This document shows positions 1,961 through 44,766 of a stretch of DNA of 45,974 nucleotides, in pieces. The notes under the pieces are model-generated. The model was given only the letters and a program-made list of their open reading frames with translations. It had not been told where the DNA came from and ran no database searches. Numbering within the stretch: the stretch's first letter is position 1; every line of letters starts with the position of its first letter. The position numbers and the translations under genes are program-made. Source of the DNA: Limisphaerales bacterium (lineage in GTDB: Bacteria > Verrucomicrobiota > Verrucomicrobiia > Limisphaerales > SXTU01); the NCBI GenBank assembly GCA_046090965.1, contig JBJTAU010000268.1, forward strand, positions 1 through 45,974, read 5' to 3'.

Positions 1961-2039
1961 GCCCGCGGATAACGCGGAACACACAGATCAAGAATCTTCG
2001 CCCCTCCCCTTATCCGTGTCATCCGCGCCATCCGCGGGC
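1961..2039. repeat. imperfect hairpin built from tandem ~9-nt units (GCGGATAAC type)
   Basis: Left arm GCCCGCGGATAACGCGGAACACACAGAT (1961-1988) pairs with right arm CTTATCCGTGTCATCCGCGCCATCCGCGGGC (2009-2039). Same family as 39336-39422 and half-copy 9151-9173. Confidence 0.8.
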
Positions 2040-2053
2040 CGAAAGAATCATTT

Positions 2054-2668
2054 ATGAAAAACCTGTTCCTCATCCTCACCGCCCTCGCCCTCACCCTCAC
2101 CTCGTTCGCCGCGGACTAGGAAGACGGCTTCAAGCCCATCTTCAACGGCAAGGGCACCACCGGCTGGAAGCTCCGTCGCGCCGACGGCCACAACAGTTGG
2201 ACCGTCGAAGACGGCGTGCTCAAGAACACCGTCAACAAGGGCGAGCACGGCACCGACCTCGTCACCGAGCAGAAGTATTGGAACTTCACCGTGCGCTACG
2301 AGTTCATGGTGCCCGACGGCTCCAACAGCGGCTTCTACCTGCGCGGCCGGCACGAGATTCAGATCCTCGGCGACTTCAAGAGCGGCAAGCCCAGCAAGAC
2401 CGGCAACGGCGCGATCTACAACCAGACCGCGCCCAGCGAATTCGCCAGCAAGCCCGGCGGCGAATGGCAGACCTGCGAAGCCACCATCATCGGCAACAAG
2501 ATCACCGTCATCCTCAACGGGAAGAAGATCCACGACGCCGTCGAGTGCAACGTCGCCACCGGCAGCGAGATTGACCGGAACGTGACCGAGCCCGGCCCGC
2601 TCTTCCTCCAAGGCGACCACGGCACCGTCTGGTTCCGCAACATGCGGATCAAGGAATTGGCGAAGTAA
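2054..2668 (+). CDS. DUF1080 (3-keto-disaccharide hydrolase-like) secreted protein interrupted by an in-frame TAG at 2117-2119
   Basis: ATG 2054 encodes signal peptide MKNLFLILTALALTLTSFAAD, then TAG. The same frame continues EDGFKPIFNGKGTTGWK...LFLQGDHGTVWFRNMRIKEL (DUF1080 hallmarks). The track shows only the 2216-2668 remnant. Confidence 0.75.
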
Positions 2669-3016
2669 GCGTCCGGCCGAGCGCAGCTAAGTTTCCTAGC
2701 GACGCCAATCGCGGGCCTCGCAGGCCAGAGGCTTCCCAGCCATTGGCCAGGGGTATCGATGACCGATGCCATCGCGCCGACGCCCCTACGATCGCGATTT
2801 GAGGGGCCAAATACCCCTTGCCAGCCGCCGCCCGGCCGCTAGTGTCCGCCCCGCCTGAACGCCGTGAGTGCGGCGATTCATTGAGGCTGAGAAACGTCGG
2901 TCAACAACGCAACCTAACCCTTAACCTCCGTTGCCCTGCAACGTCGGTCGTTAGGCAATGGAGCCTTCGCCGGGCCTTCGCCCGCCTAGTCTCCCGCAGT
3001 CACACACACAGTAAGT

Positions 3017-4672
3017 ATGCTAACCATGGAAGAAGCCATGCGCGCGAGCTCGAAACGCTTTGCCGCTGGTGAAATTGTCAAAGGCATCATCCTCGAAGTC
3101 CGCAACAAGGAAGTCCTCGTGGACATCGGCTACAAATCCGAGGGCGTCGTCTCCCGCAGCGAGTTTCTTGAACCCGACGCCATCAAGGTCGGGGACGAGA
3201 TTGATGTGCTCATCGAGAAGCTCGAAGACAAGGAGGGCATGGTCATCCTCTCCCACGAGCAGGCGGAGTTTAAGAAGAACTGGGACCGCATCCGCACCAT
3301 CTGCCAGGAGGGCGGCACCGTCTCCGGCAAGGTCAAGGCCATCGTCAAGGGCGGCCTCATCGTCCACATCGGCGTCGAGGCGTTCCTGCCCGCGTCGCAG
3401 ATTGACATCATCCCGCCCAAGAACCTGACCCCGATGCTGGGCAACAACTATGATTTCAAGGTCGTCAAGATCAACGAGGACCGCCGCAATGTCGTCCTCT
3501 CCCGCCGCGAGCTGATCGAGGCCGAGCGCTCCGAGCGCCGCGGCAAGCTCCTGGGCGAGATGACGCCTGGCGACATCCGCAAGGGCACCGTCAAGAACAT
3601 CACCGACTTCGGCGCGTTCATTGACCTCAACGGCCTCGACGGCCTCCTCCACATCACCGACATGAGCTGGGGCCGCATCGGCCACCCGAGCGAAATCCTC
3701 AAGGTCGGCCAGGAACTCGATGTCGTCGTGCTCGACGTGAACAAGGAGAAGGAACGCGTCAGCCTCGGCCTCAAGCAGAAGCTCGCCAACCCGTGGGAGG
3801 CCATCGAGAGCAAGTTCCCCGTCGGCGCGAAGGTCAAGGGCAAGGTCGTCAACCTCGTTGCCTACGGCGCGTTCGTCGAACTCGAACCCGGCGTCGAAGG
3901 CCTCGTCCACGTCACCGAACTCTCTTGGGCCAAGCGCATCGCCAAGCCCTCGGACGTCCTTAAGGCCGGCCAGGAAGTCGAAGCCGTCGTCCTGGGCATC
4001 AACCGCGAGGAGCAGAAAATCTCCCTCGGCATCCGCCAGCTCGAATCCAACCCGTGGGAAGCCGCGCAGGGCAAATACCCGCCCGGCACCAAGATCAAGG
4101 GCAAGGTCCGCAACCTCACCAGCTACGGTGCCTTCGTCGAGCTTGAGGAAGGCCTCGACGGCATGGTGCACGTGTCCGACATCTCGTGGACGCGCAAGAT
4201 CAACCACCCCTCCGAAGTCTTCGAGAAGGGCACCGAGGTCGAAGCCGTCGTGCTCGAGATCGACAAGACCAACCAGCGCATTTCGCTGGGCATGAAACAA
4301 CTCGGCACCGACCCGTGGTCCAGCATTGACCAGTTCTACAAGGTCGGCGACCTCGTCACCGGCAAGGTCACCAAACTCGCCAGCTTCGGCGCGTTCATCG
4401 GCCTGGCCCACGACATTGATGGCCTCGTCCACATCAGCCAGATCAGCGAAGAGCGCGTGGACAAGATCAAGAACGTGCTCAACGCCGGCCAGGAAGTGAC
4501 CGCGCGCGTGGTGAAGATTGACCGCGCCGAGCGCCGCATCGGCCTGTCCATCAAGGCCGCGAACTACAGCCCCGAGCAGCTCAAGGAAGAGCAGAAGATC
4601 CTCGACGCGCTCAAGCCCGGCGAGGACCTCGTCGCGCTCCAGCACGCGTTCGACGCCGCCGAGGATCGCTAA
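3017..4672 (+). CDS. rpsA: 30S ribosomal protein S1
   Basis: 551 aa with six S1 repeats (e.g. GxVxxItdFGAFIDL / GLVHISE-type motifs). The start could be ATG 3017 or ATG 3026. Confidence 0.95.
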   Translation: MLTMEEAMRASSKRFAAGEIVKGIILEVRNKEVLVDIGYKSEGVVSRSEFLEPDAIKVGDEIDVLIEKLEDKEGMVILSHEQAEFKKNWDRIRTICQEGGTVSGKVKAIVKGGLIVHIGVEAFLPASQIDIIPPKNLTPMLGNNYDFKVVKINEDRRNVVLSRRELIEAERSERRGKLLGEMTPGDIRKGTVKNITDFGAFIDLNGLDGLLHITDMSWGRIGHPSEILKVGQELDVVVLDVNKEKERVSLGLKQKLANPWEAIESKFPVGAKVKGKVVNLVAYGAFVELEPGVEGLVHVTELSWAKRIAKPSDVLKAGQEVEAVVLGINREEQKISLGIRQLESNPWEAAQGKYPPGTKIKGKVRNLTSYGAFVELEEGLDGMVHVSDISWTRKINHPSEVFEKGTEVEAVVLEIDKTNQRISLGMKQLGTDPWSSIDQFYKVGDLVTGKVTKLASFGAFIGLAHDIDGLVHISQISEERVDKIKNVLNAGQEVTARVVKIDRAERRIGLSIKAANYSPEQLKEEQKILDALKPGEDLVALQHAFDAAEDR

Positions 4673-4699
4673 CCCGCTCCACGGCAGAACCGGTTTCGC

Positions 4700-4736
4700 A
4701 ACCGGCAGGCCAGCGATGGCCTGCCGGTTTTTCTTT
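4700..4736 (+). terminator. Rho-independent terminator after rpsA
   Basis: Perfect 10-bp stem CCGGCAGGCC (4702-4711) / GGCCTGCCGG (4718-4727), 6-nt loop, then TTTTTCTTT. Confidence 0.85.
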
Positions 4737-4934
4737 GCGGTGTCTCGCTGGTCGGAAAGGCGGAGTCGCTCAATGCGCTTGCCAGCCAAGCGAACGTCCC
4801 GGTGGGGACGTAACTGGGCGCACCTGCCCGGGATTTCGGAGCGGAGCAAAGCGTCCGGGAGTTGGCACCGGGAAAAGTGATTCCTGCCAACTTCGGCGTT
4901 TGCATCGGTCACACTCCCTGCCAGCCTGAGCGTC

Positions 4935-6578: not shown

Positions 6579-6610
6579 GTCGCGCGAAGGCCGCGAAGGG
6601 GGCGAAGGAC
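6579..6610. repeat. solo arm of the GCGAAGG tandem-unit family
   Basis: GTCGCGCGAAGGCCGCGAAGGGGGCGAAGGAC contains three GCGAAGG cores at 9-nt spacing. It starts like the left arm at 18188 (GCGCGAAGG...). No complementary arm nearby. Confidence 0.6.
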
Positions 6611-6628
6611 TGGCGGCCCCGTAATGAG

Positions 6629-8020
6629 GTGGGCGCGCCATCGGAGCGCATCGCCTGCGCAGCTCAAGTCTTCGGCTCGGCCCTCGCCCCCGTCGGGGTC
6701 TTCGCGCGACAGCTCCTCGTGCTGCTGGCGTTTGCCAACATCCCTTGCGCCGCCGCCGCTGCGCTCTGGGCCGGCACGGCGAAGGTCGAGATCACGCCCA
6801 CCGAGGACGCCGCGGTGAACCTGTCCGGCCAGCCGTTGCGCCTGCGCGATCCGCTCTTCGCCCGCGTGCTCGTGCTCAAGGACGCCAAAACCTCCGTGGC
6901 CATCGTGTCGGCGGACCTGATCGTTTTCGCGTCGCCGAAAGTCATCGCCGAGGCGAAGCGCCAGTGGGGCGTGGACCACGTCATTCTCACTGCCACCCAC
7001 ACGCACGCAGCGATGGCGCCGCGCGGCCTGCTGATCAAACCTCCCACCGCGCCCGACTGGACGCGTCACGCCAACGGCCCGTCCACCTCAGTCAACTGGC
7101 TCAAGCTCTCCGACGATCCTTGGTATGCCGCGACCGAGGCGAAGGTCATCGCCGCCATCGGCAAGGCGATGCAAAGCCTCTTCCCCGCGCGGCTGGCCTC
7201 CGGCAAGGGCTCGTATGACAGCGCTTACATGGCGCACAACCGCCGCGACGTCCGGCCCGACCGCGTGCTGCCGCTCAGGGAAAATCCCAACCGCCGACCC
7301 ACGCAGCCCGTGGACCCGACCGTCGGCGTGCTGCGCGTCGAGGACTTGTCCGGCAAGCCGCGCGCCTTCGCGGTGCATTACGCCTGTCATCCCGTGGCGC
7401 TCATGGCCGCCGGCGTGGTGTCGCGCGACTATCCCGGTGCGATGGTGGACCACCTCGAGCAGGAACTGGGCGGCGACTGCATGGCGATGTTTCTCCAAGG
7501 CGCGTCGGGCGACCTTGACCCTTACGACCTCCACAATCTGCGCGGCGAGAACCGGTTTAACATCGTGAAGCAAGCCGGCATCGCGCTTGGCAAGGCCGCG
7601 CTTCAGCTCGCGGCGAAACTCAAAGCCCCGCCGACCAGCGCGCAGCCCGTGCTCGAAGTAAAAGAGAGCTTGCTCACGATCCCGCACCGCAGTGGCCCGC
7701 AGAGCACCGAGGTCGGCCTGCTCACCGTCGTCATCCAGCGCGACCTCGCGCTGGTGGCCATCCCCGGCGAGCCGTTCGTGCAGCACCAGCTCGACCTCAC
7801 GGCGAAGTCGCCCGTGCCCAACGCCTTCATCCTCGGCCTGGCCTACAGCGGGCGCGGCACGCCGTTCACCGTTTACCTGCCCACCGTGCAAGCCGTGAAG
7901 GAAGGCGGCTACGGCGCGGCGGAGTGCAGCTTTCTCGCCGCGGATGCCGGCGAGCGGTTGGTGACCACGGCGTTGACAGAAATGCAGGCGATCGTGGGCA
8001 AGACGCCACCCGCCCGATAA
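6629..8020 (+). CDS. neutral/alkaline ceramidase-like hydrolase (N-terminal domain family), secreted
   Basis: ...AKVEITP...LFARVLVLKD...ILTATHTHA...VGVLRVEDLSGKPRAFAVHYACHPV. The start is uncertain: GTG 6629 is preferred because it lies after the solo repeat arm; GTG 6536 overlapping the upstream stop is also possible. The track ORF start at 6311 overlaps the previous gene. Confidence 0.7.
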   Translation: MGAPSERIACAAQVFGSALAPVGVFARQLLVLLAFANIPCAAAAALWAGTAKVEITPTEDAAVNLSGQPLRLRDPLFARVLVLKDAKTSVAIVSADLIVFASPKVIAEAKRQWGVDHVILTATHTHAAMAPRGLLIKPPTAPDWTRHANGPSTSVNWLKLSDDPWYAATEAKVIAAIGKAMQSLFPARLASGKGSYDSAYMAHNRRDVRPDRVLPLRENPNRRPTQPVDPTVGVLRVEDLSGKPRAFAVHYACHPVALMAAGVVSRDYPGAMVDHLEQELGGDCMAMFLQGASGDLDPYDLHNLRGENRFNIVKQAGIALGKAALQLAAKLKAPPTSAQPVLEVKESLLTIPHRSGPQSTEVGLLTVVIQRDLALVAIPGEPFVQHQLDLTAKSPVPNAFILGLAYSGRGTPFTVYLPTVQAVKEGGYGAAECSFLAADAGERLVTTALTEMQAIVGKTPPAR

Positions 8021-9150: not shown

Positions 9151-9173
9151 GTGTCCATCCGCGCCATCCGCGG
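9151..9173. repeat. solo arm of the GCGGATAAC-type family
   Basis: GTGTCCATCCGCGCCATCCGCGG is nearly identical to right arm 2016-2038. No left arm is present. Confidence 0.6.
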
Positions 9174-18140: not shown

Positions 18141-18187
18141 CTTGTGGAGCCAAACTGAAGTGAATCTGCCGTTACGAAGACCGTGTC

Positions 18188-18256
18188 GCGCGAAGGAGGC
18201 GAAGGAAGAGATGAAGCGAACCCGCTCCCCCTTCGCTCCCTTCGCGGTCTTCGCGC
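18188..18256. repeat. imperfect hairpin of GCGAAGG-type tandem units
   Basis: CGCGAAGGAGGCGAAGGAAGAG (18189-18210) pairs with CTCCCCCTTCGCTCCCTTCGCG (18225-18246); an extra CTTCGCGC at 18249-18256 can pair with GCGCGAAG at 18188-18195. Confidence 0.7.
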
Positions 18257-18282
18257 AACCCCATCGATGCACTGTTAACCAC

Positions 18283-19279: not shown

Positions 19280-20272
<993 letters not shown>

Positions 20273-20275: not shown

Positions 20276-20353
20276 CGTGGTGCGTGGTGCGTGGTGCGTG
20301 AAAAAGCAGGAGCACTCCAAGCCCTGCGCACGCACCACGCACCACGCGCCACG
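20276..20353. repeat. hairpin of GTGGTGC heptamer repeats
   Basis: CGTGGTGCGTGGTGCGTGGTGCGTG (20276-20300) pairs with CGCACGCACCACGCACCACGCGCCACG (20327-20353). 24 of 25 positions are complementary and the loop is 26 nt. Confidence 0.85.
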
Positions 20354-22760: not shown

Positions 22761-22840
22761 GTTAGTAATTAGTGTTTAGTGATTAGTAGCGAGGAGTCGT
22801 GGGCGCTGCCAGCGCGGACTAAATACTAAGCACTAATTAC
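22761..22840. repeat. hairpin of TTAGTGA-type heptamer repeats
   Basis: GTTAGTAATTAGTGTTTAGTGATTAGT (22761-22787) pairs with ACTAAATACTAAGCACTAATTAC (22818-22840). The right arm contains the prfB stop codon (22837-22839). The left arm starts 5 nt upstream of the trpC GTG. Confidence 0.8.
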
Positions 22841-23980
22841 TCCTCTTCGTCTTGCACGCCCTGCATCCGTTTCAACGGGCAGCCCGCGCGGAGCCAGCCG
22901 TTCACGAAGTCATCAAGCGTGCCGTCCATGACGGCCTGCACGTTGCTGGTCTGCACGCCGGTGCGGAGGTCCTTCACCATGCGGTAGGGCTGGAAGACGT
23001 AGCTGCGAATCTGCTGGCCGAAACCGATCGCGCCCTTCTCGCCGTAGAAGCGTTCCATCTCGGACTTCTGCTGGTCCTCGCGCAGCGCGTAGAGCTTGGC
23101 GAGCAGCATCTTCATGCACGTCGCGCGGTTCTGGTGCTGCGATCGCTGGCCCTGCGACGCGACGATGATGCCGGTGGGCACGTGCGTGATGCGGACAGCG
23201 GTCTCGACCTTGTTCACGTTCTGCCCGCCTTTGCCGCCGGAGCGAAAGGTGTCGGTCTTCAAGTCCACCGGGTTGATGACGATGTCACCCGCCTCCTCAA
23301 TCTCCGCGATGACGTCCACGCTGGCGAAGCTCGTATGCCGCCGCTGGTTCGAGTCGAAGGGCGAGATGCGGACGAGCCGGTGCTCGCCGCGCTCGGCCTT
23401 GGCGAAGCCGTAGGCGTTCTCGCCCTCGATGGTCATGGTGGCGCTCTTCACGCCGGCGACTTCGCCTTGGAGAATGTCCGTGACCTCGGCCTTCCAGCCG
23501 CGCAGTTCGCACCAGCGCTGATACATCCGCAACAGCATGTTGGCCCAGTCCTGCGCCTCGGTGCCGCCGGCCCCGGCGTTGATGCTGAGAATGCAGCCAT
23601 TCTTGTCGTGCGGCCCTTTGAGCAGGAAGCTCAGTTCCAATGCGTCCAAGTCCGCGACGAACTTGGCCACATCGCGCGTGAGGTCACGCAGGACGGCGGG
23701 TTGGCCTTCGACGGGCTCAGCCTCGCCGAGTTCGACCATCATGCGGAAGTCGTCGAGCTGCCTTTCGGCGGCGAGGAGAGGGTCCACCTTCTTGCGGAGG
23801 GCGTTGGCCTCGTCAATGGCCTTTTGCGCGGTCTCGCGGTTGTTCCAGAACGACTCCTGCGCCATCACGGAGTCCAGCTCCGCTATCCGTTTCTGCGTGC
23901 CGGGCCAGTCAAAGAAACCTCCGCATCTGGGCGAGCTTCTCTGCCGTGGTAATCAGTTGCGCCTTCACCGTGTCGAACAT
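22837..23980 (-). CDS. prfB: peptide chain release factor 2, programmed +1 frameshift (join 23980..23912, 23910..22837)
   Basis: Frame 0 reads [23 protein letters not shown] then TGA. The +1 frame continues [23 protein letters not shown]..., with SPF and GGQ motifs ([21 protein letters not shown]). Confidence 0.95.
23908..23922 (-). promoter_or_regulatory. RF2 recoding site: GGAGG-TTT-CTT-TGA-C
   Basis: On the minus strand: internal SD-like GGAGG, a 3-nt spacer, then the CTT TGA C shift site. Same layout as the E. coli prfB site. Confidence 0.9.
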
Positions 23981-24101: not shown

Positions 24102-26354
24102 GTGAACCACCTGATTTTCCCGCTCCTCGCTTTGCTCGCCGGGAGCGTCTGCTCGAACCTCTTCGCGGCCACGGCTTATGACGGGTTGCCGTCCGGCCTC
24201 GACCAGCGCACCCCGCTCACCACCTCGCGTGTCATCGGTTCGCCGGAGCCGCCGCCGATGCTGCGCGCGAAACCTGCCTGGCCGGGGTTGAGCTTCAACC
24301 ACTCGCTGTTCATCGGGCGCGATGCCAGCAGTGACGGCTTTCTCGTCGTGGAGCAAGCGGGCCGCGTGCTGTCGCTCGCGCGCGACCAGGCGGTGAACAC
24401 GACGAATCTCTTCCTCGCGGTGCCGGACCACGAGCTCTATTCGGTGTATTTCCACCCGGGCTTTGCGACGAACCGCTTTGTGTATGCGTTCGCGAACGGG
24501 CCGACGAAGTTGATCACCAACAGCGCCACGGGCGTGGTGCTGGGCGGGACGAACCGGTTTAACCGCATCCTCCGCTACACAGTCACGGCGGCGGGCGCGG
24601 CGGACCCGGCGTCGGAGTTGGAAATCATCAAGTGGTGGTCGAACGGGCACAACGGCGGCGAGATGACCTTCGGCCTCGACGGAATGCTTTACATCACGTC
24701 GGGCGACGGCACGAGTGACTCGGATGGGAACAACACCGGCCAGGACATCACGGACTTGAACTCCGGCCTGCTGCGGCTCGACGTGGATCATCCCGCGCCG
24801 GGCAAGACGTTCTCTATCCCGAAGGACAATCCCTTCTGGGACATCCCGGGCGCGCGGCCGGAGTTGTGGGCTTACGGTTTTCGCAACCCGTGGCGCATCA
24901 CGATGGACCCGGCGGACGGCGGGCTGCTGGTGGGCGACATCGGGCAGGACCTCTACGAGATGATTGAGCTGGTGACGCGCGGCGCGAACGTCGGCTGGAG
25001 CGTGCGCGAGGGCAACCACCCTTTCCACGCGCAGCGCAAGCTCGGGCCGCACCCGGTCACGCCGCCATTGGTCGAGCATCACCACGCCGAGGCGCGATCC
25101 ATTACCGGCGGCGTGGTGTATCAGGGGAGCAAGTTTGCCGAACTGCGCGGCGCGTATCTCTATGGGGATTACGGCACGGGAAAAATCTGGGCGCTCAAGC
25201 GCAAGGGCCACCAAATCACTTGGCACCGCGAGATTGCGGATACGCCTCACCAACTGCTCGCGTTCGCCGAAGGCCGCGCGGGCGAAATCTTCTACGCGGA
25301 CTACGCCGGACAACTCTACGAACTGGAGCTGACGCCGCCGGAGACGAAGAAGCGCCCGCCCTTCCCGAAGAAGCTCAGCGAGAGTGGGCTGTTCGCGAGT
25401 GTGAAGGGCCATGTCGTTCAGCCCGCGCTGATTCCGTATTCGGTGAACTCGCAGTTGTGGTCGGACGGCGCGCACAAGGAGCGGTTCATCGCGCTGCCGG
25501 GCACGAACCAGATCACCTTCAGCGAGGGCGGCGGCTGGAAGTTCCCGGAGGTCACCGTGCTCGTGAAATGCTTCGCGCTCGATCTCGAAGCGGGGAACGC
25601 GAAGTCACGCAAGTGGGTCGAGACGCGTTTCCTCCTCTTTGAGCAAAACGAGTGGGTCGGCTACAGCTACCGCTGGAACGATGCGCAGACGGACGCGGAG
25701 CTAGTTGAAGCGAAGGGCGCGGACCGCGATTACAAGATCAAAGACACCCGTGCACCCGGCGGCTCGCGCAAGCAAACGTGGCATTACCCCAGCCGAGCCG
25801 AGTGCATGACCTGTCATAGCCGCGCCGCGCAGTTCGTGCTGGGCACGACCACGCTCCAGATGAACCGCGAGCACGACTACGGCGGGGTGAAGGCGAACCA
25901 GCTTCGCACCCTTGCGCACATCGGCGCTTTCAATCTGAAGCCGGGCGCGGACGGCGTCGCCAAGCTGCCCAAGCCGTCGGAAAAGATGGCGGCGTTGCCC
26001 AATCCCTACGACGAGGCCGCGCCGTTGGAGGACCGGGCGCGCTCCTACCTGCACGCGAACTGCTCGCATTGCCACGTCGAGGCCGGCGGCGGCAACTCCG
26101 CCATCACGCTGCGCTGGAATACGAAGTCCGAGCAAATGAAGTTGATCGGCGTCGCGCCGCTGCACGACAAGTTCGGTATTGCTGACGCCCTGCTCGTCGC
26201 GCCCGGAGTGCCGGAGCGCAGCGTGCTGATGCAACGCGTCCTTCGCGTGGGCCAAGGTGGCATGCCGCCGCTCGCCAAGACGCTGGTGGACGAGCCGGCG
26301 GTGAAGATGCTGGGTGAGTGGATTCGCGGGGTGAAGCCGCCAGACGGAAAGTGA
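24102..26354 (+). CDS. PQQ-dependent sugar dehydrogenase (SGDH-like beta-propeller) fused to a C-terminal domain with two CxxCH haem motifs
   Basis: GHNGGEMTFGLDGMLYITSGDG...AYGFRNPWR...GDIGQDLYEMIE propeller motifs; CMTCH and CSHCH in the C-terminal third. Confidence 0.8.
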   Translation: MNHLIFPLLALLAGSVCSNLFAATAYDGLPSGLDQRTPLTTSRVIGSPEPPPMLRAKPAWPGLSFNHSLFIGRDASSDGFLVVEQAGRVLSLARDQAVNTTNLFLAVPDHELYSVYFHPGFATNRFVYAFANGPTKLITNSATGVVLGGTNRFNRILRYTVTAAGAADPASELEIIKWWSNGHNGGEMTFGLDGMLYITSGDGTSDSDGNNTGQDITDLNSGLLRLDVDHPAPGKTFSIPKDNPFWDIPGARPELWAYGFRNPWRITMDPADGGLLVGDIGQDLYEMIELVTRGANVGWSVREGNHPFHAQRKLGPHPVTPPLVEHHHAEARSITGGVVYQGSKFAELRGAYLYGDYGTGKIWALKRKGHQITWHREIADTPHQLLAFAEGRAGEIFYADYAGQLYELELTPPETKKRPPFPKKLSESGLFASVKGHVVQPALIPYSVNSQLWSDGAHKERFIALPGTNQITFSEGGGWKFPEVTVLVKCFALDLEAGNAKSRKWVETRFLLFEQNEWVGYSYRWNDAQTDAELVEAKGADRDYKIKDTRAPGGSRKQTWHYPSRAECMTCHSRAAQFVLGTTTLQMNREHDYGGVKANQLRTLAHIGAFNLKPGADGVAKLPKPSEKMAALPNPYDEAAPLEDRARSYLHANCSHCHVEAGGGNSAITLRWNTKSEQMKLIGVAPLHDKFGIADALLVAPGVPERSVLMQRVLRVGQGGMPPLAKTLVDEPAVKMLGEWIRGVKPPDGK

Positions 26355-26424
26355 TAAGTAATTAGTGCTAAGTAGGCTCGCGCAGAACTTCGCCCGTTGC
26401 GACTAATCACTAATCACTAAGCAC
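26351..26424. repeat. hairpin of TTAGTGA-type heptamer repeats between convergent genes
   Basis: GTGATAAGTAATTAGTGCTAAGTAG (26351-26375) pairs with GACTAATCACTAATCACTAAGCAC (26401-26424), about 70% pairing. The left arm contains the TGA stop of the upstream gene (26352-26354). The right arm ends 4 nt from the stop of the DUF1501 gene. Confidence 0.75.
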
Positions 26425-30268: not shown

Positions 30269-30280
30269 AGGCCGTGCTCC

Positions 30281-34183: not shown

Positions 34184-34206
34184 GCCTCAACCTTCTGAAA
34201 TGCGAA

Positions 34207-34241: not shown

Positions 34242-34259
34242 GCCCCGGTTGCCCGGGGC

Positions 34260-34306: not shown

Positions 34307-34526
34307 GGAGTTTGCAGAAACAGCACGCAGTAGGCTTATGTGGGAACTCATTCGGAGCCGTGCCTACTCCGAACGAAACCTGTTTGGCTTACAAAGAACT
34401 TGCAGCGTTCTTGCCAGAAATCGTTGCTGCCTACGCGGGCAAAGAAACCATCATGCAGGCCCGGTGTCAATCTCCCTGAAAAGATATTACCAGCCCTGTT
34501 TGGCGGAATAAGCGGAAGCGCCGGAC

Positions 34527-34823: not shown

Positions 34824-34832
34824 GCGGGAAAA

Positions 34833-34930
34833 GGTAAGTTCAAGGTTCAAAGTTCAAAGTTCAAAGTTCGCCCGCCAGGAGCACGCGGTTGAACCTGAAA
34901 CCTTGAACCTTGGACCCGAAACCTTGAACC
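34833..34930. repeat. hairpin of GGTTCAA-type heptamer repeats in a divergent intergenic region
   Basis: Left arm (GTTCAAG)(GTTCAAA)x3 at 34833-34870. Right arm CGGTTGAACCTGAAACCTTGAACCTTGGACCCGAAACCTTGAACC at 34886-34930, ending 7 nt before ATG 34938. Confidence 0.8.
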
Positions 34931-34937
34931 TCCCGCC

Positions 34938-35915
34938 ATGTCCGCCTACGCACAGTTACTCGACGCCGCCATCCGCGACTTGGAGGAACGCAAGGCCGTC
35001 GGGGAACGCTTCATCACCGTCGCCCCCGCGACCTTGAGCGCGCTCGCGGCTCCGACAGCGGCCACGCCGCCCGCGCGTGCCAAGCCCGCCGAGATTCTTG
35101 CGCCTGCGGCTCGCCCCGCCACCGCGCCCCGGGCCGGCAGTTCGCAACCGCCGTCCGCACCGCCTGCCCCTACCTCGCGTGCCCCGCTCTTTCCCGCCGT
35201 TCAACCGCCGTCCAACCCATCCGCCGCTCCCGCACGTTCCACCGCCCTGCCGCCGTTGCCGGCACTCAACATGTCCGCCGCTGAGAAGCCCGCTGCCTTC
35301 GCCGCGCTGCGCGAGCGCGCGCTGGCCTGCACGAAATGCCCGCACCTCGTCACCACGCGCAAGAGCGTGGTCTTCGGCGTGGGTGATCCCAACGCGCAGC
35401 TCATGTTCGTGGGTGAAGCGCCGGGCGCGGACGAGGACGAGCAGGGCGAGCCCTTCGTGGGCCGGGCGGGGCAAATACTCACCGGGATGATCCGAGGGAT
35501 GAACCTCTCCCGCGAAACGGTTTACATCGCCAACATCCTTAAGTGTCGCCCCGACACCCTGCCCGGCATGCGCGGCAATCGTCCCCCGCGCCCCGAGGAA
35601 CGGGCCGCGTGCCTGCCGTATCTGCTCGAGCAGATTCAACTCATTCAGCCGCGCGTGCTCGTCGCGCTGGGCGGCACGGCGGTGGAAGGACTCTTTGGTC
35701 AGGCCGAGGTGCGCATCACGCGGTTGCGGGGGAGCTGGATGAACTTCCATGGCACGCCGGTGATGCCCACTTTCCATCCCAGCTACGTCCTCCGCGCCGA
35801 GGACGGCCCCGGCAAGGGCCGCGCCACCAAGCGCCTGGTCTGGGAGGACATGCTGCAAGTCATGGAGCGGCTGCAAATGCCCATCAGCGAGAAGCTGCGC
35901 GGGTTTTTCAAGTAG
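34938..35915 (+). CDS. family 4 uracil-DNA glycosylase with Pro/Ala-rich N-terminal extension
   Basis: CTKCPHL...FGVGDPNAQLMFVGEAPGADEDEQGEPFVGRAGQIL...ANILKCRP...FHPSYVLR. Confidence 0.88.
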   Translation: MSAYAQLLDAAIRDLEERKAVGERFITVAPATLSALAAPTAATPPARAKPAEILAPAARPATAPRAGSSQPPSAPPAPTSRAPLFPAVQPPSNPSAAPARSTALPPLPALNMSAAEKPAAFAALRERALACTKCPHLVTTRKSVVFGVGDPNAQLMFVGEAPGADEDEQGEPFVGRAGQILTGMIRGMNLSRETVYIANILKCRPDTLPGMRGNRPPRPEERAACLPYLLEQIQLIQPRVLVALGGTAVEGLFGQAEVRITRLRGSWMNFHGTPVMPTFHPSYVLRAEDGPGKGRATKRLVWEDMLQVMERLQMPISEKLRGFFK

Positions 35916-35955
35916 CCGCGGCTGGCCGCGCAGGAACGCAGCGATGAACAGGGAG

Positions 35956-36058
35956 AACTTCCAACGTCCAACGCTCAACTGCCAACGTCCAAAGGGGCGC
36001 TCGGATGCGGCGGGGGCTTCGTTGAATGTAGAAGGTTGGAAGTTGGACGTTGAACGTT
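35956..36058. repeat. imperfect hairpin of NNNCCAA / TTGGNNN heptamer repeats
   Basis: (CTTCCAA)(CGTCCAA)(CGCTCAA)(CTGCCAA)(CGTCCAA) at 35956-35993 pairs with (TTGAATG)(TAGAAGG)(TTGGAAG)(TTGGACG)(TTGAACG) at 36018-36058. The outer ~17 bp pair well; the inner part is degenerate. Confidence 0.7.
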
Positions 36059-36110
36059 TTCCCGATTCCTTCCTTGTGCTCTCTGCGCCCTTTCGCGGCC
36101 AATTCTCCCC

Positions 36111-37640: not shown

Positions 37641-37652
37641 CCGCTGTCCGCC

Positions 37653-38711
37653 TCAGCAGGCGACTCGCCGGCCTTCCTCGCTGGAGCGATACATCGCATC
37701 CATCAGCTCCAGCGTGGCCAGCGTGGAGGCCGTTGTGTTCCGGCATTCCTTGCGCTCGCCGCGCGCGACGGCGAGCCAATCGCGGATCAACTCGCGGCTG
37801 CGGTAGCCGTGGTAGCCGGGCGTCCTGTCGGCCGGCAGGGAGAAGACTTCCTCCATCGCGTGGAACTGCGGCTGCGGCCCGTGAATCTCCAGCACGCCGC
37901 TCGTGCCCGCGCGGTTCGGATCCCAATGCACCCAGCGCTGGCTGCCGCGTAACGACCACCGCCATTCGCCCGCCCAGCGCGGCAGCCAGTAGCCGCCGGT
38001 GAAGGTCGCCAGTCCGCCGCCAGACAAATCAAAGATGGCCGAGCCGCCGTCCTCGACGCCGAGTGGTGTCTCACCGAAGACGCCCGTGCGCGCGGTCACG
38101 GCGGTCACGGACTGGCCGGTCACGTAAGTCAGCAGGTCAAGGTAATGACAGCCCAGCCAGTTGAAGAACCCGCCGCCGCTCTGCTCCGGGTCGAACAGGA
38201 AGTGCGACGGTCCGCGCCGGTTGGCGTCGCTCGTCACGCAGGTCATCTCCACGCTGATGAGCTTGCCGAAGCGGCCCTCAGCGATCATCGCCTTGAGCCG
38301 TTGCGCGCCTTCGTCGTAGCGCCAGAGGTAGCCGGTCTGAAACGCGACGCCCGACTGCCGCACTTTCTCCAGCGCGGGCCGCGCGGCGGCGGCGTTCACG
38401 CCGCAGGGCTTCTCGGAACGCACGTGCTTGCCGGCGGCGGCGTGGTGTTCCAGCACGGCGGGCACGCGGTCGTAGGGTAAACAGACCACCGCGCCATCGA
38501 AGAGACTTCCGCGCCGGGCGCTCAGCTCCGCGATGCTGCCGAAGCGCGGCACGGCGGCGAGCGTTTCCTCCAAGCTGGCGAGCCCGCCGCCGAACTCCGG
38601 CACGATGGCCGTGATGACGACTTCCCCGGCGAGGTTGAGCAGCGACTCGCGCCACGCCGCCCCGTGCGGATGGTCAACGCCGATGAACGCGACGCGGAAA
38701 GGCTGGCTCAT
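37653..38711 (-). CDS. Gfo/Idh/MocA family oxidoreductase
   Basis: ATG 38711 gives MSQPFRVAFIGVDHPHG..., a Rossmann N-terminus, followed by a GFO-type C-terminal domain. The track N-terminus MNLEPETSNLEPPP is translated repeat sequence. Confidence 0.88.
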   Translation of the reverse strand: MSQPFRVAFIGVDHPHGAAWRESLLNLAGEVVITAIVPEFGGGLASLEETLAAVPRFGSIAELSARRGSLFDGAVVCLPYDRVPAVLEHHAAAGKHVRSEKPCGVNAAAARPALEKVRQSGVAFQTGYLWRYDEGAQRLKAMIAEGRFGKLISVEMTCVTSDANRRGPSHFLFDPEQSGGGFFNWLGCHYLDLLTYVTGQSVTAVTARTGVFGETPLGVEDGGSAIFDLSGGGLATFTGGYWLPRWAGEWRWSLRGSQRWVHWDPNRAGTSGVLEIHGPQPQFHAMEEVFSLPADRTPGYHGYRSRELIRDWLAVARGERKECRNTTASTLATLELMDAMYRSSEEGRRVAC

Positions 38712-38718
38712 GGGCGGA

Positions 38719-38756
38719 GGTTCAAGGTTCGAGGTTTCCGGTTCAAGGTTCAAACG
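38719..38756. repeat. solo arm of the GGTTCAA heptamer family
   Basis: (GGTTCAA)(GGTTCGA)(GGTTTCC)(GGTTCAA)(GGTTCAA)ACG. No complementary arm nearby. On the minus strand it ends 7 nt before ATG 38711. Confidence 0.7.
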
Positions 38757-38776
38757 ATGAGGCTTGGATTTTATCA

Positions 38777-38834
38777 GGAGAGCAGGAAGGCAGGAGGATT
38801 GGCTTCCAGTTGCTTTCCTGCCCTCCTGCTCCCC
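38777..38834. repeat. hairpin of GCAGGA(A/G)G-type tandem units
   Basis: GGAGAGCAGGAAGGCAGGAGG (38777-38797) pairs with TTTCCTGCCCTCCTGCTCCCC (38814-38834). Confidence 0.7.
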
Positions 38835-38864
38835 TTATGAAAAACCTCCCCTCCGGAAACGAAG

Positions 38865-38891
38865 AGCCCCTCCGCATCGCACGGAGGGGCT
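38865..38891 (-). terminator. possible terminator after the IscA-type gene
   Basis: Stem AGCCCCTCCG (38865-38874) / CGGAGGGGCT (38882-38891). On the minus strand it is followed by CTTCGTTTCC, only moderately T-rich. Confidence 0.45.
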
Positions 38892-38923
38892 GGCTTCGGC
38901 CTGCGCCGGTTGATCAAGCCGGG

Positions 38924-39274
38924 CTAGGCCTCAAAGGACTTCCCGCAGCCGCAGCTTTGCTTGGCGTTGGGATTGGAAATCTTGAACCCACCACCGGTCA
39001 GCTCGTCCTTGAAGTCGATCACGCAGCCGCGCAGCACTTCGGCGCTGATCGGATCGGTGAGCACGCCCACGCCGTGGAACTCGCCGGCGAAGTCGCCGTC
39101 ACGTTGCTCGTCGAAGACCATGCCGTATTGCATCCCTGAGCAGCCGCCCTTCTCGACATACACGCGGAGCCGCTTGCCGGCCGGTTCCGGCTCGTTCGCG
39201 AGCATGGACTTCACCTGCTCGGCGGCGCTGGGCGTGAGGCTGACGACGGGTTCGGCGAGTGTGGCGGTGCTCAT
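38924..39274 (-). CDS. iron-sulfur cluster insertion protein (HesB/IscA/ErpA family)
   Basis: 116 aa. LRVYVEKGGCSGMQYG and C-terminal CGCGKSF. Confidence 0.9.
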   Translation of the reverse strand: MSTATLAEPVVSLTPSAAEQVKSMLANEPEPAGKRLRVYVEKGGCSGMQYGMVFDEQRDGDFAGEFHGVGVLTDPISAEVLRGCVIDFKDELTGGGFKISNPNAKQSCGCGKSFEA

Positions 39275-39335
39275 TTGAGTCTTGGGGCGAACGTAGAGGT
39301 GGAGTGCGGGGCTGTCAAATCTGGCAAACTCCTTT

Positions 39336-39410
39336 GCCCGCGGATAACGCGGAATACGCGGATGGGGAAAGCGAGCTGCGAACTAGGTGTGTTCATCCGC
39401 GTCATCTGCG

Positions 39411-39422
<12 letters not shown>
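39336..39422. repeat. hairpin of GCGGATAAC-type 9-nt units
   Basis: GCCCGCGGATAACGCGGAATACGCGGATG (39336-39364) pairs with TTCATCCGCGTCATCTGCGTTATCCGCGGGC (39392-39422), 26 of 29 positions. The right arm encodes the last codons and the TAA of the U32 gene. Confidence 0.85.
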
Positions 39423-42143
<2,721 letters not shown>

Positions 42144-42252
42144 GAGAAGTCGCCGACGCGGACAAGCTACGGTTGGGCCGCGGCAGCGTCGAGCCTCGTC
42201 GCGGAGCGAGGATCGCATTCTACCTGCGGTCATTTCCGGATGCGTGGGAGGC

Positions 42253-42280
42253 TTGTCAGCGAGGGCCAGCGTGATAGCTT
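42253..42280 (+). promoter_or_regulatory. candidate promoter, leaderless geometry
   Basis: TTGTCA (42253-42258), 16 nt, TAGCTT (42275-42280), 6 nt, then GTG 42287. Confidence 0.4.
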
Positions 42281-42286
42281 GCCGGC

Positions 42287-42982
42287 GTGCGCCGCTTCTT
42301 CAGCCCGCTCTGTATGAGGCTCTACGCGTTCCTCGCGTTGTTCCTCGCTCTGTTCTACGCGTGGCCCCACGCCATGCGCAGCGAGTGGAACCGCGAGCGC
42401 CTTTACCGCCAGCTTCTCAGCGGCTCGGAGAAGGACCGCATCACCGCTGCTGGCAACCTCGTGGCCTACGGTGGTCGCGAACAACTCCTCAAGGCGCTCC
42501 AGTCTGACTCCCCCTCGATTCGCACCGTGGCCATCAGCGCGCTGTTCGACATCTGGGTGGCGGCGGAAGGAGAGGAAGCGGCGTTCCTCCTGCAAGTGGC
42601 GGGCAATTCGATCGAGCGGAAAAACGTCCAAGGCGCGCTTAACCACCTCACCCGGCTCACGCGCACCTATCCGTTTTTTGCCGAGGGCTGGAACCGCCGC
42701 GCCACGTTGCTCTGGCAGCTTGGCCAGGTGGAACAATCCCTCGCGGACTGCCGCAAAGCGGTGCTGCTGAACCCCGAGCACTTCGCCGCTTGGCAGGGCA
42801 TGGGGCTGTGTCAGGTGCGCCTCGGCGATCTCGCCGCCGCTACCAAGTCCTTCGAGCAGGCCCTCAAGCTCATCCCCCACGACCGCCAGACGCAGCACTA
42901 TCTCCGCTGGGCCGAGGACATGCTCAAACGCGAGCGGCAGACGCGGCCGAAGCAGGCGGAGTGGCAGGGTGAGCTGATCTGA
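42287..42982 (+). CDS. membrane-anchored HEAT/TPR repeat protein
   Basis: Hydrophobic N-terminus LYAFLALFLALFY, then TPR-like repeats (AEGWNRRATLLWQLGQVEQSLADCRKAVLLNPEHFAAWQGMG...). The alternative start is ATG 42314. Confidence 0.7.
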   Translation: MRRFFSPLCMRLYAFLALFLALFYAWPHAMRSEWNRERLYRQLLSGSEKDRITAAGNLVAYGGREQLLKALQSDSPSIRTVAISALFDIWVAAEGEEAAFLLQVAGNSIERKNVQGALNHLTRLTRTYPFFAEGWNRRATLLWQLGQVEQSLADCRKAVLLNPEHFAAWQGMGLCQVRLGDLAAATKSFEQALKLIPHDRQTQHYLRWAEDMLKRERQTRPKQAEWQGELI

Positions 42983-42990
42983 GGAGGAGA

Positions 42991-43079
42991 AGTGGTTAGT
43001 CCTTAGTGATTAGTCCAAATCGCCAACGTGAAGAGTCACGTCCTCGCCGCTGATGACTAAACACTAATTACTAACCACT
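42991..43079. repeat. hairpin of TTAGTGA-type heptamer repeats between convergent genes
   Basis: AGTGGTTAGTCCTTAGTGATTAGTC (42991-43015) pairs with GACTAAACACTAATTACTAACCACT (43055-43079), 22 of 25 positions. The right arm contains the TAG stop of the STAS gene (43071-43073). Confidence 0.8.
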
Positions 43080-43604
43080 TTTCCCCGCCTCCGCCTCCTG
43101 TTTGGCCACGTCTTCCGCGAAGAACTTCGCCACGTCCTTGAACTTCGCGACGTTCGCCGGGTTCAGGTCCATGAGCACCTGATGGGCTTCGAGGCAGTTG
43201 CGGGACATTTCCAGCTTCGACGCGCCAGCGGACTCGACGGCGGCGAGGCAGAGGTTTTCCAGATCCTTGCCCTGCACGACGTGGAAGAGGTGCAGCACGC
43301 CGAGGTTGTCAATGAGGTCGGCGACTTTGGGTGTGGGGTTGAGCAGCTCGATGGGGCGCTGCTCGGGCGGGAGGTCGTCGGCGGAGAGCTGGGTGCCGAG
43401 GCTGGCGAGCACGCCGAGGAACGTGCTGTCCATGATGGGGCAAGCCGCGAGGTCCACGATGAAGCGCTGCGCGCCGCGCGCGCGGGCCTCGTTGACGAGG
43501 CGCTTGAAGTCCACGCTGGTGGCGAAGTTCGCGCGCCCGGCGAGCTTCACGCACACAGCGTCACCGACGCGCGCGGCGAGGAGGGTGGAAGTGGGGGAGG
43601 TCAT
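43071..43604 (-). CDS. STAS domain protein (anti-sigma-factor antagonist-like) with C-terminal extension
   Basis: VKLAGRANFATS...FIVDLAACPIMDSTFLGVL (DS[ST] phospho-site context). Confidence 0.8.
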   Translation of the reverse strand: MTSPTSTLLAARVGDAVCVKLAGRANFATSVDFKRLVNEARARGAQRFIVDLAACPIMDSTFLGVLASLGTQLSADDLPPEQRPIELLNPTPKVADLIDNLGVLHLFHVVQGKDLENLCLAAVESAGASKLEMSRNCLEAHQVLMDLNPANVAKFKDVAKFFAEDVAKQEAEAGKSG

Positions 43605-43609
43605 CTAGG

Positions 43610-43867
43610 TCACAGCTTCGAAGTGCCGGTCAGATTGAGCCAGAATTCATAGTAGCTTTCAATCGCCGCACCCATCGGCGACCCGTGCGGGATGGCCCAT
43701 TCCAAAGGCGCGTAGATTCTGACGACCACCTCTACGGGCAACCAACCACGGTGATAACAGACACAGGCCGGGCCGATGCTCAACACGTAGAGCAACGGCA
43801 TCAAGACAAGCGCGACGACGACGTGGAACCACGTCTTGCCGGACTTGCTGGTCGCTTCGTCGCTCAT
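43610..43867 (-). CDS. small membrane protein, paralog 1 of 3
   Basis: ATG 43867 gives MSDEATSKSGKTWFHVVVALVLMPLLYVLSIGP...ESYYEFWLNLTGTSKL (85 aa). Its stop is 5 nt from the STAS start. Confidence 0.6.
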   Translation of the reverse strand: MSDEATSKSGKTWFHVVVALVLMPLLYVLSIGPACVCYHRGWLPVEVVVRIYAPLEWAIPHGSPMGAAIESYYEFWLNLTGTSKL

Positions 43868-43869
43868 TC

Positions 43870-44120
43870 TCAGAGTTTGGTTCCGGTGATACGCGCCCAA
43901 GCTTCCACGTAAGAGTCTATCGCCCCCCTAGGCCCGTCTTGTCCATGAACCGAATCAGCGGCTTATACACGGCTTCGATGGAGGAGCCGGGAATCAACCC
44001 TCGTGCCGCGAGCACAACCACCGGCCCGGTGCTCAACACGTAGCAAAGGGGCACGCCCACGAGGAGGCCCACGACGTAAAGCCACGTCTTGCTGGGCTTG
44101 TCTGTGGTTTCGTCGCTCAT
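43870..44120 (-). CDS. small membrane protein, paralog 2 of 3; needs a -1 shift in a G6 run (C6 at 43923-43928 on +)
   Basis: Frame 0 reads MSDETTDKPSKTWLYVV...FMDKTGLGGR then TAG (43917). The -1 frame continues AIDSYVEAWARITGTKL then TGA (43870), matching the paralog C-termini. Confidence 0.5.
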
Positions 44121-44380
44121 TTGGGAAAATGAAGTGTAGTCCCAGTCGTGATCATCCAGGCTTCGATGTAGCTCCGGAACAAGACTTCGGTATTCGTGGC
44201 GTCGGCAAACGACTGCAGCGGCTTGTAAAGTGTGTTAACGGCTGAATTGGAGGCCCAGCCCCGCATAAGCAGCACGACCGCCGGCCCGATGCTCAAGGCA
44301 TACAGCAGCGGCAAGGCGAGGACGAGGCTCAGGCCGTAGAGCCACGCCTTGCTGGCCTTGTCTGTGGTTTCCTCACTCAT
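44117..44380 (-). CDS. small membrane protein, paralog 3 of 3
   Basis: ATG 44380 gives MSEETTDKASKAWLYGLSLVLALPLLYALSIGP...RSYIEAWMITTGTTLHFPK (87 aa). ATGA overlap with the paralog 2 start. Confidence 0.6.
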   Translation of the reverse strand: MSEETTDKASKAWLYGLSLVLALPLLYALSIGPAVVLLMRGWASNSAVNTLYKPLQSFADATNTEVLFRSYIEAWMITTGTTLHFPK

Positions 44381-44467
44381 GCCGGGTTTTGTCTGGGCCG
44401 CCGGGGCCACCCGTCCCAATCAACACCCACGCCCGCCCAGTGGCAAGCGGCGGCATTTGCCCTCCGG

Positions 44468-44516
44468 CTTCTCCCTCTCCCTTCCTCGGAGGAGGGGAGA
44501 GGGCTGGGGTGAGGGG
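44468..44516. repeat. GC-rich near-palindrome (CTCCCTCTCCCTTCCTC / GAGGAGGGGAGAGGG)
   Basis: Centred near 44488. Different style from the heptamer elements: polypurine/polypyrimidine arms. Confidence 0.6.
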
Positions 44517-44540
44517 TTTCGCGCGTCGGCGTTGGTGGCC

Positions 44541-44610
44541 GCACCCCTCATCCGGCCTTCGGCCACCTTCTCCCCTCGCTACGCGAAGGGAGAAGGCTCG
44601 CGAGGGGTGC
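44541..44610. repeat. nested GC-rich hairpin
   Basis: Outer pair GCACCCCTC (44541-44549) / GAGGGGTGC (44602-44610). Inner pair CCTTCTCCCCTCGC (44566-44579) / GCGAAGGGAGAAGG (44583-44596). Confidence 0.6.
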
Positions 44611-44738
44611 GCGCCGAAATCCGTGCCGGCGATTTGCAACCGCCGCCCGTGGGATGGAGCAAGTCGAGACGGCTCTGAGCAGTCCACCCGCAACGCGGCG
44701 GCTGGAAGCCGCCGGCACGGGGTCATCGCGCGCTCACT

Positions 44739-44766
44739 CCCCATTCCCCATTCCCTATTCCCCATG
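44739..44766. repeat. solo arm (CCCCATT)(CCCCATT)(CCCTATT)(CCCCATG)
   Basis: Four tandem heptamers ending 4 nt before the holA stop codon at 44771-44773, i.e. just downstream of holA on the coding strand. No complementary arm found. Confidence 0.65.

Follow-up and report, generated by a model that had tools for sequence, protein, structure and literature searches.

The window analyzed here is a 46-kb stretch of a contig from a metagenome-assembled genome (MAG) of a Limisphaerales bacterium (Verrucomicrobiota), with a G+C content of ~65%. Its genes, as assigned with Pfam, have housekeeping and carbohydrate-active functions and include those for ribosomal protein S1, a release factor, trpC, fructose-bisphosphate aldolase, holA, sulfatases, esterases, ThuA and GFO/IDH/MocA proteins. 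Dispersed between and within these genes are hairpin elements of a recurring design, in which tandem copies of a short unit are followed by a loop and then by tandem copies of the complementary unit. An earlier reading of this stretch from its letters alone (the sequence-only reading) had drawn attention to this architecture and to the many different units that share it, and on both points it was right. The heptamer-repeat hairpins are real; at least 10 different units occur within the 46 kb, and the window and verrucomicrobial loci together hold 88 distinct units. Pfam scans of all plausible genes also bear out its remark that no mobility gene lies in the window, be it a transposase, a Y1 transposase of the kind associated with repetitive extragenic palindromes (REP-associated tyrosine transposase, RAYT), an integrase or a reverse transcriptase.

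The periodicity is specific and far exceeds what base composition would provide. Scanned strictly by period, the window yields 10 period-7 arrays and 30 dinucleotide shuffles yield none, without enrichment at any other period from 4 to 12. In the non-redundant output of Tandem Repeats Finder (TRF), 17 of the 32 window arrays having at least 2.5 copies show period 7, and 10 of these 17 are matched by a reverse complement of at least 75% identity no more than 160 nt away, compared with 0/17 for a reversed-only control. Long hairpins, with arms of at least 20 nt and a complementarity of at least 80%, number 14, as opposed to a mean of 1.95 and a maximum of 5 in 20 shuffles. An excess over shuffled sequence, which the sequence-only reading had proposed as a check, is thus present for arrays and hairpins alike within the window. 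Of the long hairpins, 11 coincide with loci on the list given by that reading, every one of which was recovered in place and with its units by direct reading, TRF, RNAfold and an inverted-repeat scan. The probability that the repeats stem from chance or faulty assembly is negligible. The contig does derive from a short-read MAG assembly, in which repeats can be mis-assembled, but the excess over shuffles is very large, all six in-gene elements keep their reading frame open, and the same families and in-frame peptides appear in dozens of independent assemblies and orthologous proteins; these independent assemblies already refute an artefact. On both strands, Rfam 15 returned no match at the gathering score, and a scan of the window for tRNA and tmRNA was likewise empty.

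A typical arm combines a conserved core with variable positions, as is apparent from the TTAGTNN alignment (TTAGT-NN) and from the N-GGGTCT units. The variable positions are frequently non-complementary between the two arms, so that the stems consist of short helices interrupted by small internal loops. Arms built from heptamers pair nearly equally well in registers shifted by 7 or 14 nt, which is expected for arrays and not for fixed palindromes. This behavior sets them apart from the families to which the sequence-only reading had ascribed a 9-nt unit: their palindromes exist, but the 9-nt periodicity is weak, and the arms pair in one register only (82-90% identity versus 50-70% after a 9-nt shift), as ordinary imperfect palindromes do. 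Other details of that reading also need adjusting. The proposed tandem array of GCAGGAAG comprises just two 8-nt units, and the supposed solo arm at 6579-6610 has a partner at 6681-6710 that is 87% complementary and separated from it by a 72-nt spacer in the inverted-repeat scan. The solo array at 38719-38756 is indeed there, not inside an open reading frame but in a 5' leader, and the array ends 7 nt before a conserved ATG.

The loops are 5-72 nt long in the window and up to ~120 nt elsewhere, and many of them hold a small hairpin rich in GC. Each loop is unique: a comparison of 26 paired elements, taken from the window and from related loci, shows only chance 7-9-mers in common. One 9-mer, CAGGAGCAC, occurs in the loops of the unrelated elements at 20301-20328 and 34870-34889 (E = 0.04 in a small search) and resembles the arm unit GCAGGAGG at 38777, probably by chance. 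Some elements are nested within one another (L061:12994-13172 and L002:5456-5586). No target-site duplication was seen at element flanks, including those in syntenic comparison, and no outer terminal motif is common across families, whose flanks are merely purine-rich in scattered places.

Units recur at distant loci and group into families, as the sequence-only reading had concluded; its further claim that these families share only their architecture does not hold. Some families carry conserved termini (AGTGGTTAGT...ACTAACCACT, GCCCGCGGATAAC... and GTCGCGCGAAGG...), each recurring at distant loci. The GCCCGCGGATAACGCGGAA terminus is common to the loci at 1961 and 39336, and GTCGCGCGAAGG...GGTCTTCGCGC to those at 6579 and 18185, while AGTGGTTAGT...ACTAACCACT occurs in the window and in the related loci L081 and L089. 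The TTAGTNN and GCGGAT termini are seen in other genomes too. The units themselves cluster in sequence space: among the 88 verrucomicrobial units, 140 pairs lie within one substitution of each other, compared with 75.8 +/- 6.7 for composition-matched random units, a 1.85-fold over-clustering. The elements are therefore better regarded as repeat families that are defined by sequence, related to one another and of a generally known type than as a class defined purely by structure, and the claim of an undescribed class set apart by architecture alone is only partly supported.

Mapping to start and stop codons places the elements at gene boundaries or in frame within genes (Table 1), in line with what had been proposed. 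Intergenic spacers that bear an element are essentially filled by it. For most elements, the distance from the end of the element to the next start codon is 3-25 nt, and four elements supply a gene with its stop codon.

Table 1. Repeat elements in the window and the gene that hosts five of them.
Position	Strand	Feature	Context
1961..2039		GCCCGCGGAT(NN)CGCGGA-family palindrome, weak 9-nt period	8 nt past ThuA-like gene stop, 14 nt before ATG 2054
6579..6710		GTCGCGCGAAGG-family palindrome, paired, 72-nt spacer	
9151..9173		GCGGAT-family solo right arm, CCATCCGCG x2	14 nt ahead of ATG 9188
18185..18259		GTCGCGCGAAGG-family palindrome	between sulfatase stop (18140) and esterase ATG 18283
19433..19459	-	solo CGCGTTT x3.9 array, absent from the sequence-only list	in frame in radical-SAM/DUF3641 gene, peptide NAKRETRDA
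20276..20353		GTGGTGC x3.6 / complement x3.7 hairpin, 96% complementary, dG -64	3 nt upstream of the radical-SAM gene's probable TTG start, 20272
22761..22841		TTAGTNN hairpin	includes release-factor gene TAA stop (22837-22839); 4 nt before trpC start (22756)
26351..26424		TTAGTNN hairpin	fills convergent-gene spacer; includes GSDH-like gene TGA stop (26352-26354)
34833..34931		GGTTCAA / TTGAACC hairpin	between divergent genes
35956..36058		CGTCCAA / TTGGACG hairpin, 5.3 and 5.6 units	40 nt past UDG stop
38719..38756	-	solo TTGAACC x5 array	5' leader of GFO/IDH/MocA gene, ends 7 nt before ATG 38711
38777..38834		GCAGGA(A/G)G hairpin	downstream of canonical terminator
39334..39424		GCGGAT-family palindrome	encodes final residues LARG and TAA stop (39411-39413) of U32 gene
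39411..42146	-	U32 peptidase/DUF3656 gene (Pfam), 910 aa	host to five in-frame elements
40119..40155	-	in-frame, self-complementary GATTGCC/GATTGGC array	site S5, residues 664-676, peptide QSPIGNWQSAI
40291..40407	-	in-frame GGGGTCT hairpin; loop with further small hairpins	site S4, residues 580-618
40861..40893	-	in-frame solo GATTGGC x3.9 array	site S3, residues 418-428
41134..41208	-	in-frame GGGTCGA hairpin	site S2, residues 313-337, peptide VEGRESRVE...RPSTLDPRR
41531..41614	-	in-frame GGAGTTT hairpin	site S1, residues 178-205
42991..43079		TTAGTNN hairpin	between convergent genes; includes STAS gene TAG stop (43071-43073)
44739..44766		solo CCCCATT x4 array	4 nt downstream of holA stop (44771)

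The TTGAACC family stands out by its placement, with sense-oriented arrays that terminate 7-14 nt upstream of three start codons. Two of these belong to the hairpin at 34833..34931, which gives each of two divergent genes one sense leader (starts at 34823, minus strand, and 34938, plus strand). The third, at 38719, has five units each in the window and in L001 and L002, two relatives that have their gene order in common with the window, and its position and orientation are kept. Such placement invites a functional explanation, in which the elements are selected cis-acting sites, either protein-binding arrays or RNA stem-loops, whose architecture is maintained because it stabilizes mRNA 3' ends, insulates cistrons or tunes translation initiation. 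We regard this as distinctly improbable, and as most plausible for the TTGAACC leaders, although the position of most elements at stop codons or shortly ahead of a start and the stronger conservation of arms than of flanking intergenic loops fit it as well. A parallel exists in the direct TAACTGA heptamer repeats found in leaders of Beggiatoaceae, Cyanobacteria and Bacteroidetes (MacGregor, 2015; PMC4679880). Those repeats also form sense heptamer arrays that end a few nucleotides before starts, as TTGAACC does at three genes; they are nearly always direct (one inverted in 170) and of a single unit, whereas the arrays described here are mostly paired and of many units.

Functional selection is harder to reconcile with copies that lie in frame within two proteins, with presence and absence among close relatives, and with the lack of Rfam matches. 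Nor are the elements intrinsic terminators, a reading rejected because they have no T-tail (U-tail in the transcript): no element was flagged in the scanned region 26000-45974, where the sole convincing terminator (38865-38891, minus strand) is separate from the neighboring element. Folding argues in the same direction. The antisense of the mRNA folds better, with more G-U pairs, in 9/12 oriented elements (for instance, -58.8 versus -38.7 kcal/mol for the sense strand at 41134-41208); this difference is not significant, and it is the opposite of what an mRNA structure would predict, so that selection at the mRNA level is not supported by the test. The folding bias, itself not significant in this sample, may stem from transitions in the arms that favor one strand.

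Six elements lie in frame within genes. The sequence-only reading had assigned such copies to one gene; there are in fact two, since in addition to the five elements of the U32 peptidase gene a further CGCGTTT array lies in the radical-SAM/DUF3641 gene. In an alignment of 23 U32 orthologs (68-82% identity), sites S1-S5 are the five indel-rich hypervariable stretches between invariant blocks. An AlphaFold2 model of low quality (mean predicted local distance difference test score, pLDDT, 58.5), used only for placing the inserts, shows all five as coil with pLDDT <50 between secondary-structure elements. These sites are surface linkers, and they are reused across orthologs. In DNA around 80 U32 orthologs, period-7 arrays occupy the five sites in 8/26, 11/33, 6/30, 9/30 and 13/26 close verrucomicrobial relatives, compared with 0-1 in Opitutales and 0-2 in cyanobacteria, and the units at these protein sites are those abundant elsewhere in the same genomes.

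Two of the sites show how the arrays change. S3 has a baseline length of 54 nt in Opitutales, cyanobacteria and some close relatives, and of 69-72 nt in many Limisphaerales. The long forms are near-perfect arrays of differing units (CAATCGC in the window, and TGCGGAA, AAGTTCA, AAGTCCA and CAGTCCA), and the single substitutions that distinguish the last three are present in every copy. Among orthologs, the S5 peptides QSAIGNRQSAI and QSEIGNRKSEI, which correspond on back-translation to AATCGGC and AATCGGA arrays, alternate independently of overall identity. Whole arrays have switched, and we take this pattern to indicate concerted evolution or overwriting of entire arrays. The S3 solo arrays begin directly after conserved codons, and their units resemble the local sequence.

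The U32 sites have other occupants as well. A composite GC-rich palindrome at 44466-44610 (CTCCCTCTCCC...GGGGAGAGGGCTGGGGTGAGGGG...) is the DNA counterpart of the 'PSGERAGVRG...LSPDGGEGE' peptides found at S4 in the orthologs P0003, P0007, P0031 and P0041, and belongs to a second family of repeats in these niches, one that lacks heptamer periodicity. The nearest non-verrucomicrobial relatives of the U32 protein (60-62% identity) come from heterocystous and other filamentous cyanobacteria (within L044-L080); the heterocystous forms are the classical hosts of heptamer repeats, and the cyanobacterial orthologs carry other repeat-derived inserts at S2, such as ERPNPLTPFPTREGGIKAPLS.

Comparison of orthologous loci, which the sequence-only reading had recommended, reveals presence and absence of elements between the window, L001 and L002, with no sign of the target-site duplications that it had suggested looking for. 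The palindrome at 39334-39424 has an identical junction in L002, giving a common C-terminus (...KLARG*), but does not occur in L001, whose gene has a different end and is followed by a spacer of 44 nt. The hairpin at 38777-38834 has nearly identical arms and an unrelated loop in L002 and is absent from L001, and the TTAGTNN element at 42991 is absent from the syntenic L001 spacer. Elements are thus gained or lost on a time scale that corresponds to ~80-87% protein identity. In the two orthologous elements that can be compared between the window and L002, the arms are retained while the loops turn over faster than the adjoining non-coding DNA; the spacer is less conserved than the arms, as in known hairpin-forming doublets.

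Distribution follows clade. The density of period-7 arrays per 10 kb is 3.7 in the window, 2.1 in close relatives, 2.1 in heterocystous cyanobacteria and 0.36 in Opitutales, and the cyanobacterial unit STRR1 (ACTGGGG; STRR, short tandemly repeated repetitive sequence), a positive control, was recovered in cyanobacterial loci only. A complementary partner is present for 59% of arrays in the window, 27% in other Verrucomicrobiota and ~10% in the sampled cyanobacterial loci. Certain units recur across genomes, with AATCCGC, AATGCGG and ACTCCGC each found in 6. A metagenome scan for four TTAGTNN units listed 120 loci, mostly on low-GC contigs of other taxa; on high-GC contigs the family retains its termini, its loops, 13-122 nt long, are unique and its arrays reach ~17 units, and no candidate master element was seen among the 120 loci listed. 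Very long solo TTAGTGN arrays of 96-124 nt, with up to ~17 units, lie on two of the high-GC contigs (L192:5-128 and L191:393-488), so copy number can far exceed the 3-5 units of the window.

The window shows two further features. A DUF1080/3-keto-disaccharide hydrolase gene (2054-2668, plus strand) begins with a signal peptide, MKNLFLILTALALTLTSFAAD, and is then interrupted by an in-frame TAG (2117-2119), after which the mature domain resumes in the same frame; this could represent a pseudogene, a sequencing error or read-through. On the minus strand, positions 43610-44380 hold three tandem paralogous small genes of 85, 67 and 87 aa with the N-terminus MSDE(A/T)T.K.SKTW and a hydrophobic stretch, ...LS.GP..., for which the overlapping reading frames tested gave no Pfam match. 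The spacer that holds them measures 1.1 kb in the window versus 486 nt in syntenic L001.

The sequence-only reading had recognized no described class with this design, but precedents exist in heptamer pairs of Xanthomonas (PMC4692102), in cyanobacterial STRR repeats and in REPINs, the inverted doublets formed by REP sequences (PMC3116915). In X. campestris and X. axonopodis, Rehm et al. (2015; PMC4692102) found 183-186 (GGGANTN)n heptamer arrays per genome, 70-75 convergent pairs of which per genome are capable of forming stem-loops. Those (GGGAATC / GGGANTN)n arrays are ~90% intergenic, lie ~28 nt from the 3' end of the upstream open reading frame, typically comprise ~4 units, and do not accompany the same genes from one species to the other (PMC4692102). 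The present elements resemble them in having dispersed tandem heptamers with a fixed core and variable positions, and in placing two opposite-strand arrays of one unit close together (10/17). They differ in phylum, in the substantial share that lies in frame in proteins, at linker sites reused across orthologs, and in sequence: the Xanthomonas repeats are one G-rich, G-quadruplex-capable family, whereas at least 10 unit families occur in the 46 kb here, mostly without G-tracts. A tract of three or four G residues is confined to GGGGTCT, GGGTCGA and CCCCATT, and is lacking from TTAGTGA, GGTTCAA, GATTGCC, GGAGTTT, CGTCCAA and GTGGTGC.

STRR heptanucleotide repeats of several families are classical in heterocystous cyanobacteria such as Calothrix and Nostoc, where they were reportedly described by Mazel and colleagues in 1990; later work, by Vioque in 1997, is said to have found STRR arrays lengthening a helix of the RNase P RNA. 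The window likewise contains tandemly repeated heptanucleotide units, dispersed and in several families, at a density that in close relatives equals that of the cyanobacterial sample; as is reported for STRR, arrays may lie inside functional genes. The unit sequences, phylum and GC content are different, and so is the larger share of partnered arrays. The canonical units CCCCAGT, TTGGTCA and CAACAGT of heterocystous cyanobacteria do not identify these elements, whose host belongs to the Limisphaerales. Rickettsia palindromic elements (RPE), according to what Ogata and colleagues are said to have reported in 2000, lie in frame in protein genes at permissive surface positions, and like the elements of the U32 gene they add peptide segments; RPE, however, are 100-150 nt long, conserved over their full length and non-periodic, in contrast to heptamer arrays in which only the arms are conserved. 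In the literature searched, no description of heptanucleotide repeats or heptamer palindromes in Verrucomicrobia or Verrucomicrobiota was found.

Other known systems can be set aside. [quoted passage not shown] Flanking direct repeats are absent and internal loops are unrelated between copies, which excludes a MITE. Integron attC sites were rejected as well: the arms lack the RYYYAAC / GTTRRRY core sites, the window encodes no integrase, and the neighbors are housekeeping genes in both orientations rather than co-oriented cassettes. A CRISPR reading was ruled out on anatomy.

REPINs are inverted doublets of REP sequences in which the arms are better conserved than the spacer (Bertels and Rainey, 2011; PMC3116915). 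The elements could be non-autonomous families of this classical kind, mobilized in trans by a cognate single-copy RAYT (a Y1 HUH transposase) whose gene lies elsewhere in the genome. The inverted doublets, with arms that are conserved around a spacer that varies, the singlets beside doublets, the several families per genome and the preference for extragenic sites would all fit, and GTAG-type REPs are present in the verrucomicrobium Opitutus terrae according to the literature on RAYTs and REPINs. We nevertheless find this reading very doubtful. REPINs are mostly extragenic and persist for long (PMC3116915), whereas six elements of the window are intragenic and the linker sites of orthologs are widely occupied. 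REP arms are short, self-folding imperfect palindromes of 20-40 nt, many of them tagged with GTAG or CGTC, and come with a RAYT gene; the arms described here are direct tandem arrays that pair in several registers, have no common terminal tetranucleotide and show no association with a RAYT. More than 10 families in 46 kb would demand many such enzymes, and the window encodes no Y1 transposase. When ~2 Mb of loci, both related and metagenomic, were searched by tblastn with unverified IS200 TnpA and E. coli RAYT queries, no match below E = 0.1 was obtained; this is weak evidence and uninformative about a RAYT, because RAYTs are single-copy and the queries unverified.

A more serious competitor, although still unlikely, is a purely local origin, in which every hairpin developed at its present locus from a pre-existing short inverted repeat or small stem-loop through heptamer slippage in one arm and templated correction of the other, with no copying between loci; family resemblance would then reflect a common mutational bias. 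Several features described above are what such growth would produce, namely the solo arrays, the start of S3 arrays directly after conserved codons with units like the local sequence, the unique loops with their small GC-rich hairpins, the register-degenerate arms, the mutational cloud of units and the same design in unrelated phyla. Identical non-periodic termini and variable-position patterns at distant loci and, for two families, in different genomes speak against it, as does the match between units at protein sites and those abundant elsewhere in those genomes.

We therefore favor, with moderate confidence, the reading that these are selfish or near-neutral heptamer palindromes of the DNA, akin to STRR repeats and REPINs and shaped by slippage and templated correction within the hairpin. 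An arm would be a short tandem array, typically of a 5-nt core and two variable bases, and arms with their family-specific termini would be copied between loci, perhaps by ectopic recombination or gene conversion between arrays, or by a hairpin-specific enzyme encoded elsewhere in the genome. Replication slippage would grow, shrink and homogenize the arrays, while quasi-palindrome correction, templated within the hairpin, would maintain the complementarity of the arms; between them, a mutation in one unit could sweep an array and new families arise from old ones. If the hairpin tip is unstable or left uncopied, each copy would come to have its own loop. Selection would presumably purge copies except in harmless places, that is, short intergenic spacers and protein surface linkers, where survival would require a length that is a multiple of three and a stop-free unit. 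Side effects would be the stable stem-loops of 3' and intercistronic RNA, the stop codons supplied to genes and the arrays in leaders. Several points weigh against this account. Neither a copying machinery nor, within the 46 kb, a mobility gene was identified, target-site duplications and a common terminal tag are absent, and the unique loops argue against simple copy-paste of whole elements. Some solo arrays, those at S3, look locally seeded, which favors a local origin, and the constancy of the TTGAACC leader across three genomes and at three starts hints at a function for at least that family. The data, moreover, extend over 46 kb of the organism's own genome and 10-kb flanks in relatives, short of a genome-wide census.

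Heptanucleotide repeats have been known since 1990 in cyanobacteria and since 2015 in Xanthomonas, and their origin and function are without an accepted account. What is new here is their extreme multi-family form, with many units, in a new phylum and often in frame. A bolder proposal, which we consider quite unlikely, is that hairpins are made and spread without a transposase, through growth by 7-nt slippage, mirroring by template switching, and copying or overwriting of arms but not loops between loci, and that this process is common to Verrucomicrobiota, Xanthomonas and heterocystous cyanobacteria. If it were true, such 'heptad palindromes' would be a distinct class of self-propagating bacterial DNA and would account for the long-unexplained excess of heptanucleotide repeats in bacteria. 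By supplying stop codons, changing protein ends and introducing segments of low complexity, the elements affect gene calling and protein-family alignments of Verrucomicrobiota MAGs. Dozens of orthologs differ in the arrays that they bear at the same five linkers, so that a gene tree can be used to trace gain, loss, switches of unit and the turnover of loops, and this comparative material could make the old question of heptanucleotide repeats testable.

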